In this document: positions 11,972-26,580 of the stretch, piece by piece
Numbering within the stretch: the first letter of the stretch is position 1
How the letters are laid out: every line of letters starts with the position of its first letter
Virus record (IMG/VR): IMGVR_UViG_3300048894_000070
Coordinates: 1-26,580 of that record
DNA: 26,580 nt
Origin: a virus
Lineage: Duplodnaviria; Caudoviricetes
Reading direction: 5' to 3' (one strand)
The notes under the pieces: model-generated
Database searches by the model: none
Told to the model about the DNA's origin: nothing
Seen by the model: the letters and a program-made list of their open reading frames with translations, nothing else
Position numbers and translations under genes: made by a program

Positions 11972-13915
11972 TTACGCGGTGTGGACCGGGCCGCCCCACG
12001 CAACGCCGGTCAGATACGCGACCGACTGCGCCCGGCGTCTCGCCCAGTTCACGACTCTCTCCGCCCTAAGCGCCACGCAGTTTGATTGCCACATTGATAC
12101 TAAACTTGTGCCTGTCGGCGTGATCGCGTCGCCGGTCGGAGCGTCGGACATTTCGAGCGATGCCTCACGGCTGGCATCGACCGTGATGCCGCCCTCGTCG
12201 GCGAGATAAGCATCCGAAGCATTGACCAGCACAACGATGTTGCCGACGTGATCGGACGCGATCACCGGCATGCCGCCGAGCGTGCCGCCGGTGTTTGTCA
12301 TCGAGGCGAACTCGTTCTGGCCGAGCGGGTTTTTCATCATCGCCAACGCCGCCGCGTTGTTCGATGACATGACCCACACGCCGCTCGTGACCGGATTGTT
12401 TGCCGCCGTGAACTTGGCAAACAGCGACCTGATATCGAGGTACACGTCGTCAGCGTCTGGACCAGATGATGCGATGGATGGCGCACCGTTAGTAATCGAA
12501 GCCGGCGAGACGTTCGCCACCGCGGTTTTAGATGGCGTGATGAAGTCGATGTCGAGCCGCTCGGTCAGCGCGTTCGCTAGCTCGTTGCGAACGATCGTGT
12601 CCGACTTCGGGTTCGAGTATCTGATGTTCTCTTCCGTTAGAACACAGATATTCGCCACTTTTAGTGGCGTCAGCGTCGTGCGTGTGAAACTGAAGGAAGT
12701 AAGCGGCTTGTTCTTTCCCTGACCTACCCAGTACCCAGCACCGCCGCTCGTCTGCGTCACGATCGGCGTGTAAAACATGATCGAGCGCAAGGCAGGGATG
12801 TTGCCGGTACCGAAGCGGCCGAGGATGGTTGCCCGCCGCTGCCATTCGAGAAAGTCGGCGACCGCCGCGCCTTCCGCAGCAATGAGGTTTGCCGCCCAGT
12901 TGCCGGTGATCGTCGAGCCGGCCGGCACCGCCGTCTTCAGCGTGCCGACGACATTGGACTCGGCCCCGTACATTTCTGTTGCGACCTCGATCGCGTTGCG
13001 GGCATCCAGCCGCGCAACGGCCCTGGCCTTCCATAGGCGGGCCGCCTCAATGCCTGGATCGAGCTTCGGCTGGCTCCGCACGACGATGCCACTGCGAAAT
13101 GCCGCGCCTTCGTGCGCCGTGTCCGCCTTGATCACCGGCTTGGCCGCCCTCGCGACATTCTGTTCAAGCTGCCGTAAACGCGCGAGCTGCTTGTCGATGG
13201 ACTCGATCGTCGCCTGGTGCGTATCGAACTCCTCGGTTTCAGCGTCGTCCATTGTGCGGTCGTCGTCGAGTCCTTTTTTGGCGACCGACTCTTGTGCCGC
13301 GAATGTCGCGGCGCGCTTGTTTTCAAGAGCCGTAATCTGCTCAGCATAAGTTTTCATCGTGCCCTCCTGGGCCTGCTGATGTCCCGAGGCGCCGGGAGGG
13401 TTGAGGTAAACGACACCGCGAGCTTTCTTGCCATGCGCGGCGAGCTGCGCAGTGTCGAGAGAACGGACTGTCGTGATCGAGGCTTCGGCGTTTGCCGGAA
13501 TTGTCACGGCCGAGAGCTCGAGCCACGACCATTTCAGAAAACGGAGGCCACCGCCTTCGATGCGCGAATGCTCGAGCGACTTGAAGCCGATCGAGAGCCC
13601 CTGCACGAGCCCGGCCTTGATCGACTGCCACGCCTCGTCGAGACGCTCCTGCAATCTGCCGGGCTCAGCGACGCGCGCCAGCTTCGCGGTGATCTCAATG
13701 CCGTCCTTGCCGTTCTTGGCCGCCGTGACATGGCCGATCGGCGCAGCGCTATCGTGCTGCCAAAGCAACGGCAGCGGCAACTTGAACTGCGCGCCCTCCG
13801 GCTCGACGATGTCGCCGAGCCGATCCGGCGTCGGCGTCGTCGCCATGCCGGTGATGGTCCGCGTCTCCTCGTTCACCCGCTTGATTTCAAGCAGGCTGTA
13901 AGCTCGGCTGAGCAT
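11972..13915 (-). CDS. Prohead protease-major capsid protein fusion (HK97 type)
   Basis: Protease motifs DRLGDIV, LLWQHD, GLSIGF, ELSAVTIPAN, followed in frame by a coiled-coil delta domain and capsid motifs (AGYWVGQG, LTPLKVA, TLGGMPV). Confidence 0.93.
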   Translation of the reverse strand: MLSRAYSLLEIKRVNEETRTITGMATTPTPDRLGDIVEPEGAQFKLPLPLLWQHDSAAPIGHVTAAKNGKDGIEITAKLARVAEPGRLQERLDEAWQSIKAGLVQGLSIGFKSLEHSRIEGGGLRFLKWSWLELSAVTIPANAEASITTVRSLDTAQLAAHGKKARGVVYLNPPGASGHQQAQEGTMKTYAEQITALENKRAATFAAQESVAKKGLDDDRTMDDAETEEFDTHQATIESIDKQLARLRQLEQNVARAAKPVIKADTAHEGAAFRSGIVVRSQPKLDPGIEAARLWKARAVARLDARNAIEVATEMYGAESNVVGTLKTAVPAGSTITGNWAANLIAAEGAAVADFLEWQRRATILGRFGTGNIPALRSIMFYTPIVTQTSGGAGYWVGQGKNKPLTSFSFTRTTLTPLKVANICVLTEENIRYSNPKSDTIVRNELANALTERLDIDFITPSKTAVANVSPASITNGAPSIASSGPDADDVYLDIRSLFAKFTAANNPVTSGVWVMSSNNAAALAMMKNPLGQNEFASMTNTGGTLGGMPVIASDHVGNIVVLVNASDAYLADEGGITVDASREASLEMSDAPTGDAITPTGTSLVSMWQSNCVALRAERVVNWARRRAQSVAYLTGVAWGGPVHTA

Positions 13916-13926
13916 GGTCCGATGTC

Positions 13927-15597
13927 CTATATGACGTACAACCGCGGCACCGGCGCCCGATGCGGCTTGGGATCGCGCACCATCACCGTGACCGCGTCCA
14001 TCAGCGCCATCCAGCAATCGATCTTCGCGTCGCCAGCGTTCTGTTTGGTCGCGCGGATCGCGGTCGCCGTGCTCTCGATCTTCACATTGCCCACGCACCA
14101 GTCCATCAGTCGGTTCGGTGCGTGTTTCAGCGTGCCGTTCTCGGTCTTGCGTTCGGCCGTCTTGATCGCGTTCATCATCGCGTAACCCTGCGGCGCCCCG
14201 ACGAGCTGCTCGCCTTCCTGCGTGATGCCGACCTCGCGCAGCGCTTCGATGAATTCACCCAGACCCGCCGGGTCCACCGCAACCGCGGCCAGCAGTTTCT
14301 TTTTATTGATCGTATCTATCAGTTCGACGATCTCTTCGATGTCCTGCGCCGCATGCTCCACGATCACGAGCTCGCCGGCCGCCTGCGCCTCCCGCAACCG
14401 CGGCGCAATCGACTTGCGCCGCTCGAGCACGCTCTCGTGACACCACGCCTTCACCCAGCACAGCCAGTCGCTGGTCTCACGACACCTTCCGACTACGGCG
14501 ACACCGAAGAGATCGTCGAGCCCACCGCCGTCGATCCCGACGACAATCACTTCAGACCTGATCAGGATCTCCTCGAGCGTCAGCGCCGCATCCTCGGCCG
14601 CCGCCCAGAACTGCGCGCCGGGCCAGCCGTCCGAGCTCATGCCGATGCCCATCTCGATGTTGAGATGCTGCGAGGCCCAACGCCGAACCTCGTCCTCGCC
14701 CTTGTAGGTCGCGGTCTCGTAGTCCGACACCAGCCGATCGATGCTAATCGACTTGCCCAGGTTCGGCGTCACCATCGGCCAGTTCGCAGGATCGCCCCAA
14801 CGCTGCCGATCGCGCGCGATGTCATCGGGGAATTCATACAAAACCGGCAACATCACCCCCGGCGCGCGGCCGTCGCGAATAGACCGAGCCATTTGTAGTT
14901 CGGCACGAAATGCACCCGCGGGCGGCTCATCGCTTTGCGTCGTGATGAACGCCAGGAACGCCTCGGGGATCGGCAGAAGCCCGCCGCGAACCTGGCCGAT
15001 AATGCGACTAGCTTTGGAGTTGCGCGAAATTTCGTGAAGCTCATCTATCAGCACGCCGGCCGGCTTGACCCCGGTCAGAACACTCGAGTCAAAAGCCTTG
15101 ATCTTGAGCTGTGCCTGGGTTCGCCGATTGGTGATGATCTTCAGGTGCTGCTGTATCTGCATGCGCCGGTGCAACACCGGATCGATCTGCGTCATACCGG
15201 CCGCCTGCATGAAAGCCAGATCGGCTACCGCCTGCGTCGGCGCCACCAGCAAGAACTCGGCACGGGGCCGCGTGTTGAGCAACAACGCGGTCATCATCAT
15301 GCCCGCACCGTAGCTCGTCTTGCTGCTCTTCTTGGCCGCAAGCACGAACAACTCGCGGATCACCCGGGCGCCACTGCGATCGATCGAGCCGAGAAGTACG
15401 CCGACGATCTCGCGGAACCAGTCGCCCGCCGCTTCGGCCATGGTCGGCGTGCCGGGCACATCCGGCAGCCGCAGCAAATTGAAAACCTCGATCGCGCGCG
15501 CCGTCTCTGCCGGGTTGATCCCATGTGCGGCGGCGGGGATGAGCGAACGCCGCGCGCGGATGCGATCCTGCCAATCCAGACACGATAGATCGAGCAT
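13927..15597 (-). CDS. terL: Terminase large subunit
   Basis: Walker A-like AAKKSSKT, LVAPT..QA-type segment, Walker B VLIDELH, ITTQS; nuclease motifs VGIDGG..DDL and KID...A. Confidence 0.95.
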   Translation of the reverse strand: MLDLSCLDWQDRIRARRSLIPAAAHGINPAETARAIEVFNLLRLPDVPGTPTMAEAAGDWFREIVGVLLGSIDRSGARVIRELFVLAAKKSSKTSYGAGMMMTALLLNTRPRAEFLLVAPTQAVADLAFMQAAGMTQIDPVLHRRMQIQQHLKIITNRRTQAQLKIKAFDSSVLTGVKPAGVLIDELHEISRNSKASRIIGQVRGGLLPIPEAFLAFITTQSDEPPAGAFRAELQMARSIRDGRAPGVMLPVLYEFPDDIARDRQRWGDPANWPMVTPNLGKSISIDRLVSDYETATYKGEDEVRRWASQHLNIEMGIGMSSDGWPGAQFWAAAEDAALTLEEILIRSEVIVVGIDGGGLDDLFGVAVVGRCRETSDWLCWVKAWCHESVLERRKSIAPRLREAQAAGELVIVEHAAQDIEEIVELIDTINKKKLLAAVAVDPAGLGEFIEALREVGITQEGEQLVGAPQGYAMMNAIKTAERKTENGTLKHAPNRLMDWCVGNVKIESTATAIRATKQNAGDAKIDCWMALMDAVTVMVRDPKPHRAPVPRLYVI

Positions 15598-22712: not shown

Positions 22713-23280
22713 GTCCGTACCTTTCTCACGCGCACGCTCACCGACCGGAAAGGCCGGGCGAATTGAGCAGGAAAATGTGTGGCGGGAGAGGACGTTAGTG
22801 GACACGCAGCCTTTCACCGATCGGCGGGCCGCGCAAGGGCGCACTCGCGCCGAGTTTTAGTTCGATGGAAGGTTTATGGAAGGTTTTTCAAAATTCGCCT
22901 GAAAATCCAAACCCCAAAAAAATCGCCCGGCCATCCCCAATGTGTTAGTTCGCAAATCGCATTTGACGAGCCGCAAAAGCTGCGTTTCACTATCATCACT
23001 CAATGACGCTTAAAGACAATCAAAGACACGCAGGCGGGACTAAATCCGCCGCGGACGGGGAATGGTGTGCGTAGTCCTCACACGAATTCAATCAGTTACG
23101 CGCGCCTCGATGGCGGCAAGCTCCTCGGCGGGAGCGGACGCGCCGCTACGAGAGGCGGGGCGGTTCAAGCTCGGGCCGCCTCGTCCTCGCAGGGGAAAGG
23201 CGGCCTTCGCAACCGGTCTCGCGTTAGGCGCGGATCGCCTTTCCCCAATTCACCCATTCGCTGATGAGGGTACGTCACCG
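22713..23280. promoter_or_regulatory. Divergent control region
   Basis: Separates the leftward and rightward operons. AT-rich core ~22855-23030, ATGGAAGGTTT x2 (22865-22886), dyad CAAAT-cgc-ATTTG (22953-22965), AAAGACA x2. Confidence 0.65.
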
Positions 23281-24180
23281 ATGACCGAAAGACGCGGCAT
23301 TTATTTCAATCTGCCGGAGGATGAGTATCACGACGATCCCGCGCTGGGCTCGACCGACGTCAAGCGCTTGCTTGCGTCCGGCGCCGATTATTGGTGGCTC
23401 TCATCACTCAACCCGAACCGGCCGGAACACCGATCGTCGCCGTCGCTGGAGTTCGGCCGGGCACTCCACAAGCATGTGCTCGAGGGCCGCCAGGCATTCA
23501 CCTCGCTCTATGTGCGCCGGCCAGATGACCTGGCCCGGCTCGACTCCAAAGCCAAGGCCATGCTCTGCCCGAACGGCGAGACGGTGCTCGACGGTGACGA
23601 TTACGACCGCATCGTCGTCTCGGCCGCGCTGATCGCACAGAACCCGGATCTCGCGGCGGCGTTCGAAGGCGGGATGCCCGAAGTGAGCATGTTCTGGGAC
23701 CACGACGGCATCCATTGCAAACTGCGCTTCGATTACCTCAAGGTCCGCGGGATCGGAGACCTCAAGTCCATCCGCAACTATATGGGCCGGCCGTTTCGCG
23801 AAGCCTGCATGCGCGCCATCGTCGATTATCGATATGATGTTCAGGCCGCACATTATCTCGAGGGCCGGGGCCACCTCGCCGGCTTCGTCGCCGACGGCCT
23901 GGTGTTTGGCGATCACGATCCGAACTGGCTCAAGCGCGTCGCCTCCGCGGAGGCCTTCGCCTTTCAGTGGGTATTTTTTCAGGCTGAGAATGCACCGATC
24001 ACCTGGTCGTGCTCGCTCTCGCCAGGCAATCCCATTCTCAGTATCGCCGAGCGCGATCGCGCCAAGGGGTTCGAAACCTACCGTGAATTCCGCGACGCAT
24101 TCCCCGCCGACGAAATGTGGCTGCTGAAAGAGCCCGTCACCGAACTTGATATCAACGACATGCCGAGGTGGTTCTCATGA
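23281..24180 (+). CDS. PD-(D/E)XK exonuclease, RecE/ExoVIII (DUF3799)-like
   Basis: YH.DPALGST, FGRALH..VLE, EVSMFW, CKLRFDYL, DLKS, YDVQAAHY. ATG 23281 with GAGG RBS. Confidence 0.9.
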   Translation: MTERRGIYFNLPEDEYHDDPALGSTDVKRLLASGADYWWLSSLNPNRPEHRSSPSLEFGRALHKHVLEGRQAFTSLYVRRPDDLARLDSKAKAMLCPNGETVLDGDDYDRIVVSAALIAQNPDLAAAFEGGMPEVSMFWDHDGIHCKLRFDYLKVRGIGDLKSIRNYMGRPFREACMRAIVDYRYDVQAAHYLEGRGHLAGFVADGLVFGDHDPNWLKRVASAEAFAFQWVFFQAENAPITWSCSLSPGNPILSIAERDRAKGFETYREFRDAFPADEMWLLKEPVTELDINDMPRWFS

Positions 24181-25067
24181 CAAAATTCGAAATCATCGAC
24201 GAAGACACTGGCGAGATCACTGCCGCTCCAATGATCGTCGCCGAAACAGGCATGGTGACCGCGCTGACTCGTGCCGAGCTCGATACGCAGATCGCAACGG
24301 CGAGAGCGTATCCGCGATCGATCACGCATGTGCGGGACGAAATCTTGTCGCTCGCTACGCTCGATGAACAGACGGCAGCCGAGTGCATGTATGCCCTTCC
24401 TCGCGCCGGCAAGCCGATCCGGGGCGGATCTATTCGCCTCGCCGAAATTTGCCATCAGACGTATGGCAATTGCCGGGCCGAGGCGCGCGTCGTTGCGATC
24501 GATCGCCAGAATAAGGTGATCATTGCCGAAGCCACGTTCCACGATTTGCAGAGGAACTCGGCGATCCGCACGACCGAACAGCGCCGGATCGCAGATAAGA
24601 GGGGCCGGCTTTTCAATGACGATATGATCGTTATGACGGGCAAAGCTGCCTGCGCGATCGCGAAGCGCAATGCCATTTTTGCCGGCATTCCGAAAGGGCT
24701 TTGGCGCGCAGCTCTTGAAGCGGCCGAGCGCGTCGTTGCCGGCGATATCAAGACACTCGCGACTCGCCGAGACGGCGCGGTCAAGGCATTTGCGGTCTTC
24801 GGCGTCAAACCGGAGCAGATTTTTGCCGCGCTCGGTGTCGAGGGCCTCGACGATATTACGCTGGAACACATCCCAACGCTGCTAGGGATGCATTCGGCAA
24901 TCAAGAGCGGCGAGGAGACGGTCGAGACTATGTTCGACCCGCGGCGCACCGGATCGGCCGCGTTCGATGCCGTGCAGAACCCATTGAAGGACGATGCCGC
25001 GCCCGAACAAACCGGCAGAGAGAATGAGGCGACAGGTGGCAAGCAGCCGAATGGAGGAAGTGAATGA
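24177..25067 (+). CDS. Putative single-strand annealing protein/recombinase partner of the exonuclease
   Basis: ATGA-coupled to the RecE-like gene; ELDTQIATARAYPR, YALPRAGKPIRGGSIRLAE, AKRNAI; acidic disordered tail. Confidence 0.65.
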   Translation: MTKFEIIDEDTGEITAAPMIVAETGMVTALTRAELDTQIATARAYPRSITHVRDEILSLATLDEQTAAECMYALPRAGKPIRGGSIRLAEICHQTYGNCRAEARVVAIDRQNKVIIAEATFHDLQRNSAIRTTEQRRIADKRGRLFNDDMIVMTGKAACAIAKRNAIFAGIPKGLWRAALEAAERVVAGDIKTLATRRDGAVKAFAVFGVKPEQIFAALGVEGLDDITLEHIPTLLGMHSAIKSGEETVETMFDPRRTGSAAFDAVQNPLKDDAAPEQTGRENEATGGKQPNGGSE

Positions 25068-25266: not shown

Positions 25267-25506
25267 ATGCCGGCGAAAAACAGCAAGGCCGACCCCGGCG
25301 AGCTCGATGCCTACAGCATCCCGGAGTTCTGCCGGCGCCATCAGATCAGCGTGGGGCATTTCTACAACATGCAGCGCGATGGAATCGCGCCGCAGACCAT
25401 GCTCGTCGGCGAGAAGCGGACGCTGATCTCGAAGGAAGCGGCGGCCCGGTGGCGCAAGGATCGCGAGCGAGTTGCAGGAGTTCAAAAGGGAGGAAGTGAA
25501 AGATGA
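25267..25506 (+). CDS. Excisionase/AlpA-like HTH protein
   Basis: AYSIPEFCRRHQIS..HFY....G.AP....VG..TLIS.EAA.RW. Confidence 0.8.
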   Translation: MPAKNSKADPGELDAYSIPEFCRRHQISVGHFYNMQRDGIAPQTMLVGEKRTLISKEAAARWRKDRERVAGVQKGGSER

Positions 25507-26210
25507 CTAATACCGCACTAGCAGACGAGCCACGGCGACGCGGACGAATGTCGGCAAAGGTAGTTAAGCTCGAAACCGCCGCGGCAGGATCGGCCAGACA
25601 ATTGGTCATCCAACCGCCGAAGATGCAGACGGTAAAACTGCGCATCAACGGCACGGCACCTTATGTGCAGCACGCCTTCTCGCAGAAGGCACGCAATACG
25701 ATGATCGAGACCCAGATGCTCGGCGAGCAGTCGCGCAAGGGACGCAAGCGCGATCCGAAGAACTTCGATGCGGTCTATGAAGGCGCGATGCACAAGTCGG
25801 TACAGGGCTGGTGGGGAATTCCGGCGCCAGCGTTCCGCAATGCTATGATCTCTGCTTGCCGCATGTCCGGCTTCAAGATGACGATCGGCAAGCTCTCTAT
25901 CTTCGTCGTCGCCGATGGCTTCGATGCAATCGACGGCACACCGCTGGTGAAAATCACCAAGGGCGCGCCTGTCAGGCATATCGCTCCAGCTCGCAATGCC
26001 GGCGGAACGACCGACATTCGTTGTCGGCCAATGTGGCGCGAGGGATGGGAAGCGACCGTAACCGTTCGTTTCGATCTCGATCAGTTCTCGATCGCCGACG
26101 TCGTCAACCTATTCAGCCGTGCCGGCATGCAGGTCGGTGTCGGCGAGGGCCGGCCGGATTCGCCAAAGTCGGCCGGGCTCGGATGGGGGCTTTGGGAAAT
26201 TGCGAAGTAA
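25503..26210 (+). CDS. Solitary Cas7/RAMP-like protein
   Basis: N-terminal strand VKLRINGTAPYVQH, RAMP-like GIPAPAFRNAMISA, RPMW..WEATVTVRF and C-terminal Gly-rich loop AG..VGVGEGRP....GLGWGLWEI. GGAGG RBS. Confidence 0.75.
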   Translation: MTNTALADEPRRRGRMSAKVVKLETAAAGSARQLVIQPPKMQTVKLRINGTAPYVQHAFSQKARNTMIETQMLGEQSRKGRKRDPKNFDAVYEGAMHKSVQGWWGIPAPAFRNAMISACRMSGFKMTIGKLSIFVVADGFDAIDGTPLVKITKGAPVRHIAPARNAGGTTDIRCRPMWREGWEATVTVRFDLDQFSIADVVNLFSRAGMQVGVGEGRPDSPKSAGLGWGLWEIAK

Positions 26211-26216
26211 CGACGG

Positions 26217-26580
26217 GGCAAGGCACGGCCTGGCTGGGCAAGGCATGGCGAGGCGCGGCAGGCGTGGCACGGCATGTCATGGCTCGGCATGTCAAGGCGC
26301 GGCGTGGCTCGGCACGGCGAGGCGAGGCAGGCGCGGCAGGGCTTGGCGCGGCACGGCTCGGCTGGGTGAGGCAGGCCTGGCAAGGCATGGCCCGGCAAGG
26401 CAGGGCGAGGCAAGGCGGGGCAAGGCAGGGCAGGCATGGCGTGGCTCGGTGCGGCGGGGCGTGGCTTGGCAAGGCAAGGCGGGGCACGGCAGGCTCGGCT
26501 TGGCGTGGCACGGCACGGCGTGGCAGGGCGCGGCTGGGCGCGGCTTGGCACGGAGCGGCAGGCAGGGCGGGGCAGGCGCG
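26217..26580 (+). repeat. GGC-NN pentamer array punctuated by GGCA tetramers; candidate guide-RNA array (continues past the window edge)
   Basis: Hand parse gives 67 pentamers (62 GGC-NN, 2 GGT-NN, 2 GTC-NN, 1 GGA-NN) and 7 GGCA tetramers at 26257, 26326, 26370, 26429, 26488, 26557 and 26571. Confidence 0.93.

Follow-up and report, generated by a model that had tools for sequence, protein, structure and literature searches.

A GGCA tetramer punctuates a staggered VIPR guide array in a likely temperate phage

Introduction

VIPR was defined by Yoon et al. (bioRxiv 10.64898/2026.04.26.720920), who describe guides of 9-16 units and a 1-nt skip rule. In the VIPR papers, the NN pairs of a guide are described as reading DNA with every third base skipped, by which genes of competing phages are silenced, and 10.64898/2026.04.26.720927 reports one Vipr protomer per 5-nt GGYNN unit. 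In Type II VIPR (SUSP1, Pseudomonas fulva prophage), each guide ends in a structured tail of ~40 nt; in ribozyme-interspersed VIPR, hammerheads lie between the guides. Yoon et al. also mention 'staggered arrays with overlapping vrRNAs'; based on the legend of their fig. S18, the guides of these arrays come from 1-nt overlapping positions, i.e. the end of one guide is the start of the next one, and the same legend speaks of individual processed vrRNAs. They state confirmation by sRNA-seq for two layouts, the ribozyme and the single-guide one, but for the staggered arrays they state none.

The junction sequence is not given in the text or legends of 10.64898/2026.04.26.720920; GGCA and GCAGG have 0 occurrences in the text of its supplement, and the drawing of fig. 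S18 may show the motif. In the accessible portions of the related preprints, GGCA is absent from 10.64898/2026.10.15.759431, and the word 'stagger' is absent from 10.64898/2026.10.15.759431, 10.64898/2026.04.26.720927 and 10.64898/2026.10.21.760802. A literature search on the junction and its processing found VIPR-related preprints, none of which, in its accessible part, is about processing.

Here, we analyse a stretch of 26,580 nt from the virus record IMGVR_UViG_3300048894_000070 (Duplodnaviria; Caudoviricetes), referred to as the window, which carries a staggered array with 1-nt overlaps. Because arrays of this kind have been published, the architecture is known and the locus itself is no surprise; what is added is a named junction motif that occurs family-wide, its place at array ends, and its role as the breakpoint of the gain and loss of whole guides. 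The reading that we favour, and consider probable, is that in this phage VIPR array GGCA splits the GGY/NN units into blocks that are gained and lost whole, each of which is likely one guide, with a predicted cut at or beside the junction.

Results

The window encodes a Vipr upstream of a staggered guide array

The 235-aa ORF upstream of the array (Table 1) has SUSP1 Vipr (36pp_D) as its sole match among the sequences of solved structures, with E 0.006 as a single sequence, E 0.008 using a profile of the close clade and E 4.2e-9 using a diverse profile of 28 sequences. It has 4771 homologs, and a Pfam search assigned it to no family. The best fold matches of the predicted structure (pLDDT 88) were Cas7-group RAMPs (Cmr/Csm3; Z 11.7, rmsd 3.3 over 148 residues), and there was no Vipr chain among the matches listed from the structure libraries ('pdb' to 8 April 2026). 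SUSP1 Vipr is reported in 10.64898/2026.04.26.720927 to grip GGY by H17, R138, D177 and R179. These residues align with H57, R175, E215 and R217 of the Vipr in the window, of which R175, E215 and R217 are invariant in 115/115 close homologs; at the position of H57, 80 of these homologs have His and 35 have Asn. Two further residues, D171 and D219, are near-invariant within the close clade. By contrast, W178 of SUSP1 corresponds to G216, a difference from Type II VIPR that counts against the favoured reading. With the RAMP fold, the thumb Arg and the G-loop all present, we conclude that the 235-aa protein is a Vipr.

In a second viral contig (L002), which contains the array in full, the array begins 6 nt past the vipr stop codon and ends 20 nt ahead of the next start codon, that of a 155-aa ORF matching phrog_15946. 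A homolog of this ORF follows vipr at a distance of up to 2 kb in 124/153 family loci. The locus thus contains vipr and one accessory vap gene, as in the minimal phage locus, and the array lies inside the vipr-vap operon, an arrangement shared by 34/152 family arrays. L002 also encodes an integrase past the array. The combination of vipr, array, 155-aa ORF, integrase, and head and terminase genes indicates that this is the VIPR locus of a likely temperate phage. A scan for sigma-70-like promoters in L002 (1200-5800) found none, and neither Cas1/Cas2 nor Cas6 was recognised near the locus. Further upstream of vipr and on the same strand, a gene for a DUF3799 PDDEXK nuclease-like protein (PF12684) is followed by a phrog_3657 gene (23062-25067); this pair is possibly a recombination module.

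Table 1. Position of the annotated features in the window
Feature	Coordinates	Strand	Remarks
Major head protein and terminase large subunit genes	11972..15597	-	Tailed phage context
Excisionase-like small ORF, directly upstream of vipr	25267..25506	+	phrog_66, E 0.0035
vipr, 235 aa, RAMP (Cas7-like) protein	25503..26210	+	SUSP1 Vipr match, RAMP fold
Staggered GGY/NN guide array	26217..26580	+	Truncated by window end; L002 4715-5141 is the complete 427 nt
GGCA junction 1	26257..26260	+	Follows block 1 (26217-26256, 8 units)
GGCA junction 2	26326..26329	+	Follows block 2 (26261-26325, 13 units)
GGCA junction 3	26370..26373	+	Follows block 3 (26330-26369, 8 units)
GGCA junction 4	26429..26432	+	Follows block 4 (26374-26428, 11 units)
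GGCA junction 5	26488..26491	+	Follows block 5 (26433-26487, 11 units)
GGCA junction 6	26557..26560	+	Follows block 6 (26492-26556, 13 units)
GGCA junction 7	26571..26574	+	Follows 2-unit mini-block (26561-26570)
Block 8 (11 units)	Start 26575, leaves window	+	Completed from L001/L002

The array is divided by GGCA at every register slip

The array in the window parses into 65 pentamers and 7 tetramers, and all tetramers are GGCA. The pentamers, which carry 13 different NN and start with GGC or GGT in 62/65 cases (the exceptions being GTCAT, GTCAA and GGAGC), form blocks of 8, 13, 8, 11, 11, 13 and 2 units, so that tandem GGY/NN runs of 8-13 units make up the six long blocks of 44-69 nt, tetramer counted in. 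The array runs past the end of the window, leaving its 3' part outside. Two other viral contigs, L001 and L002, contain the array stretch of the window letter for letter together with an identical protein, and in these contigs the full array comprises 427 nt and 87 units with 8 GGCA and blocks of 8, 13, 8, 11, 11, 13, 2, 11 and 2 pentamers. All 8 slips are by -1, i.e. successive blocks overlap by 1 nt. The array shares with the staggered arrays of 10.64898/2026.04.26.720920 the GGY/NN pentamers adjoining vipr and an accessory gene as well as successive guides of ~9-16 units at a 1-nt overlap; in a comparison that covers the text and legends of that study, no difference was seen. We conclude that it is a VIPR guide array of this kind.

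The initial annotation had reported the seven one-base slips and the block lengths exactly as they were obtained on re-parsing, to which L001 and L002 add the eighth GGCA. It had also argued that random slippage should not give the same tetramer seven times; indeed, the chance of 7/7 GGCA is 0.003 when the pentamers of this array supply the fourth base and 0.0002 under a one-base deletion model. The family counts described below are much stronger than these single-locus figures. Mini-blocks of 2 units between junctions, found at 26561-26570 of the window and at the end of the L002 array, could be remnants or spacers.

The junction motif is conserved across the VIPR family

The family set consisted of 153 loci, with some contigs included twice; duplicates were therefore removed, by sequence for arrays and by context for slips, and the resulting counts are from loci without phylogenetic independence. 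Using a parser that gave 4-nt and 6-nt units equal penalties, we obtained 152 distinct arrays in 115/153 loci, all of them on the vipr strand and none on the opposite strand. Among 964 unique slips, 921 were tetramers and 31 hexamers. The tetramers were GGCA in 652 cases, CGCA in 108, TGCA in 13 and AGCA in 6, giving 779 NGCA of 921. Thus, the same punctuation does occur in homologous arrays, a check proposed in the initial annotation, and GGCA is invariant, as had been claimed, at the locus in the window but not family-wide; the 142/921 tetramers (~15%) that are not NGCA count against the favoured reading. At slips with clean heads on both sides, GGCA was found in 495/544, compared with A at position 4 of 35% of the pentamers. 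Loci with at least three slips (n=100) had at least 70% NGCA in 79 cases and NGCA only in 42. The junction has been retained between Vipr clades whose identity falls to about 27-34%.

The spacing of the junctions is likewise non-random: among 781 internal blocks, 74% comprise 7-13 units compared with 25% under random (geometric) placement. Blocks of 0-4 units, which make up 93/729 internal blocks in the family and two blocks in the complete array of this locus, count against the favoured reading.

Slips of this kind could also arise from ordinary microsatellite slippage, from a low-complexity coding stretch or from an assembly artefact, given that open frames cross the array and that several phage records annotate arrays as hypothetical proteins. 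However, the array is identical in two other contigs, a period of 5 with -1 slips keeps no frame, every array is on the vipr strand, and across 115 loci the slips go to one side, are specific to the motif and have even spacing. The family slip statistics together with the whole-block indels described below refute this explanation, which we regard as practically dismissed.

Conservation is highest in the head that follows the junction (95% GGY compared with ~75% mid-block), and in the family there is an NN bias at the first and last unit of a block. At the 5' end, NGCA lies directly ahead of the first unit in 54/152 arrays, the array of the window being one without a leading NGCA; at the 3' end, GGCAGG is the last unit in 53/150 arrays. 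From the variable first base, the GGY head after the junction, and the NGCA and GGCAGG at the array ends, the constant part is GCAGG(C). Because GGCAG-GGC occurs in register 285 times in the family and GGCAG 5 times in the array of the window, GCAGG alone cannot be the signal, which would have to be either the register break or GCAGGC as a hexamer.

Some arrays deviate from the common pattern. In L119 (2312-), L147 (457-), L130 and L041, CGCA takes up the majority of junctions and mostly follows an AC unit, which lengthens the constant junction to GGCAC-CGCA-GG. The L110 array, unlike the other family arrays, has 6-nt slips (GGAGAC, GGTTCG) beside GGCA. Moreover, the head depends on the NN of its own unit in the 152 arrays: GGC is found before AA in 77%, before CT in 38% and before CC, CG or CA in 55-63%, with GGT or GGA as the main substitutes. 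This choice may avoid GCC, which is able to pair with GGC.

Whole blocks are gained and lost at the junctions

The cultured cluster F mycobacteriophages, the Vipr of which is 32% identical, have the same junction punctuation: in 16 named records, the distinct arrays contain 72 slips, 57 of which are GGCA. The Donkeykong array exceeds that of Brocalys by two complete blocks (113 nt), and one complete block of Mattes (59 nt) is missing from ByChance; in both pairs the breakpoints are at GGCA and the block changes agree with the measured length differences. In Quico, differing middle blocks are flanked by a related first block and an identical last block. Similarly, L062 and L079 have near-identical blocks in common amid different neighbours. 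Two observations speak against a strict whole-block rule, i.e. single pentamers are gained or lost within blocks of mycobacteriophage arrays, and L039/L040 as well as L028/L035 differ within blocks. Altogether, the claim of guide-sized units in the initial annotation is borne out with respect to block spacing and whole-block indels at the motif; for the behaviour of blocks as separate guides, support is modest (see below).

The indels breaking exactly at GGCA and the blocks of L062 and L079 would also be expected if GGCA were the DNA-level footprint of block insertion or recombination without any role in RNA. The motif at array ends fits this explanation as well; CRISPR arrays similarly carry n+1 repeats. 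A repeated heptamer is, however, a natural microhomology for deletions, and since a deletion between repeated copies of the motif gives the same pattern, whole-block indels show neither insertion nor acquisition. Moreover, a footprint without function should decay, yet the motif is kept between Vipr clades that are 27-34% identical. We therefore consider a pure DNA footprint to be very unlikely.

Blocks have features of separate guides

A block copying codon positions 1-2 of one strand is expected to have a coherent sense-versus-antisense score. This codon-strand score correlated with r 0.28 between the halves of a block (n=731) and with r 0.15 across junctions (n=430), a difference with p about 0.02 by our own Fisher-z estimate; the correlation across junctions is nonzero, which counts against the favoured reading. 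The between-block variance was 0.341 compared with 0.279 ± 0.016 in shuffles, 1/1000 of which reached the observed value. The excess faded when boundaries were shifted by at least 3 units, and a shift of 1-2 units in one direction gave no drop.

In a skip test against all flanking DNA, the signal was weak, with 7 blocks matching at least 90% at skip 1 and 0, 0, 4 and 4 blocks in the controls (skip 3 and one shuffle accounting for the two values of 4). Against 247 vipr/vap coding stretches, 6/731 blocks matched at least 88% with the skip on the wobble base, compared with 0 in the other two frames and with 0.77 ± 0.83 (maximum 3) in 200 shuffles. These matches, which resemble the in-frame skip-rule matches of Type II VIPR (SUSP1) to other VIPR loci although here they are at the family level, span whole blocks, occur on either strand and are in keeping with VIPR-against-VIPR targeting. 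The blocks that match vipr/vap of other phages in frame are in L060, L076, L094, L105, L017 and L128. When 477 pseudo-guides were placed across junctions, 1 and 0 matched, with ~4 expected if junctions were irrelevant, in what is a small control. Because AG follows in the target in 0/12 of the matches listed, the overlapping unit resembles scaffold; in two cases, the next target position is matched by the first unit past the junction, an agreement that is inseparable from chance. In total, these comparisons lend modest support to the idea that blocks behave as separate guides, and at the family level the 1-nt skip rule with the skip on the wobble base appears to be followed weakly.

For the blocks of the window itself, searches of viral contigs with 8-unit cores of blocks 2, 6, 5 and 8 gave 35, 9, 20 and 55 matches, respectively. 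The best candidates, 24/26 in L164 (AT-rich, 31% GC) and 21/22 in L244, are compatible with chance and were rejected; that no convincing target of blocks 2, 5, 6 and 8 was found in viral contigs counts against the favoured reading. In metagenomes, 11 units of block 2 had 0 matches, and 9 units of block 6 had 18 rows (17 loci) among the matches listed, the best being 22/26, with no convincing target. With up to 3 mismatches, block 6 matched 0/401 genomes of the family of G001, a host group guessed from a 44% integrase match. Blocks 1, 3 and 4, compared only with the collected loci, had no convincing target there. Two mycobacteriophage blocks had 2 matches each, none extending, and matched 0/5 phage records. 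Within 40,000 bases of the L002 record (total 40,207), the best self matches of the L002 blocks were 62-81% as raw values, with 13/16 for an 8-unit block at the top.

Read antisense by the skip rule, block 6 gives a motif like A-x-K/N-A-H/Q-A-L-T-V-V-T. Two of its metagenome matches, in L276 and L282 (21/26), are in what is presumably a PIN-domain gene, and are a lead only.

Junctions lack recognisable structure and may be cut

No hairpin was found at the junctions, and the folding energy of junctions (-16.3 kcal/mol) and mid-block windows (-16.7 kcal/mol; 300 windows each) gave no indication of extra structure. An Rfam search of L002 (3500-5800) had 0 matches, so there is no known ribozyme. 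The array as a whole folds with z -3.05 compared with dinucleotide shuffles, but with -226.2 compared with -221.5 ± 4.9 if NN are shuffled while the scaffold is kept; because the fold is ordinary under the NN shuffles, we claim no structure. In contrast to Type II VIPR, with which the array shares the homologous protein and the repeat unit, the blocks directly abut with a 4-nt junction and no structured 3' tail follows each guide; likewise, there is no room between blocks for hammerheads.

The absence of a hairpin or Rfam ribozyme at the junctions could mean that the array is left uncut, i.e. that multiple segments of Vipr filament form on a single long RNA, each with its own target, and GGCA is a kink that resets the register. 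The position of the array within the vipr-vap operon, with its 6-nt and 20-nt spacing, as in 34/152 arrays, is consistent with this possibility, all block-level evidence fits it equally well, and the sRNA-seq confirmation by Yoon et al. (10.64898/2026.04.26.720920) covers two other architectures. However, about one-third of the arrays carry the motif at their outer ends as well, where no kink is needed, and the legend of fig. S18 in 10.64898/2026.04.26.720920 speaks of individual processed vrRNAs. We regard an uncut array as unlikely.

We instead favour a scheme in which Vipr protomers would bind along the array RNA, one per 5-nt unit. A 4-nt unit is out of the 5-nt register and would break the one-protomer-per-unit arrangement, from which we infer that the filament ends at the junction. 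The terminal A(G) would be scaffold and not target-derived, and the exposed junction might be cut by Vipr itself, a host RNase or the accessory protein, in this way taking the place of the 40-nt type II tail and of the hammerheads of other types. The NN pairs of each released guide would then read target DNA with every third base skipped, silencing the genes of competing phages. Cutting of the array into single guides is predicted with fairly good, though by no means full, confidence. Other RAMPs, e.g. Cas6 and Csm3/Cmr4, cut RNA. The initial annotation, which read GGCA as a processing or filament-boundary signal producing separate guide RNAs and as a minimal analogue of a CRISPR repeat, is right in outline and partly supported; the system, which it left unnamed, is VIPR.

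Arrays of the CRISPR/Cas6 type resemble the array described here in that variable guides are set apart, and often also bordered, by a constant element at which gain or loss of entire guides occurs, and in that the effector is a RAMP. They differ in that the constant element here is only 4-7 nt and unstructured, the guide is non-contiguous, blocks also recombine internally, and no Cas1, Cas2 or Cas6 was recognised near the locus. A bolder proposal is that GCAGG(C) is a minimal CRISPR-like repeat, at which Vipr would cut at the register break and whole guides would be added in DNA at the same motif, so that a guide array would be updated block by block without Cas1, in a lineage that is proposed to predate CRISPR; we consider this rather improbable. 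Should the 4-nt junction by itself be enough for separate guides, it would be the smallest known multiplexing signal of an RNA-guided system and would bear on the origin of CRISPR repeats.

Staggered arrays are present in cultured phages

Cultured phages with staggered arrays include cluster F mycobacteriophages (L291, L295-L305), Gordonia phages (L292, L306, L307) and Cy-LDV1 (L290). Thus, phages of Mycobacterium smegmatis and Gordonia that carry such arrays are available in culture and usable to test processing. In several records of these phages, the array is annotated as a hypothetical protein, e.g. Donkeykong gp48, Pippy gp47 and DRBy19 gp51, and vipr is likewise annotated as hypothetical. 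Finally, in phage Gorge (L304), vipr and the next gene are annotated as one 1218-bp CDS (609-1826), and the tblastn match spans only the last 30% of Vipr; this is possibly a frameshift or a fusion.
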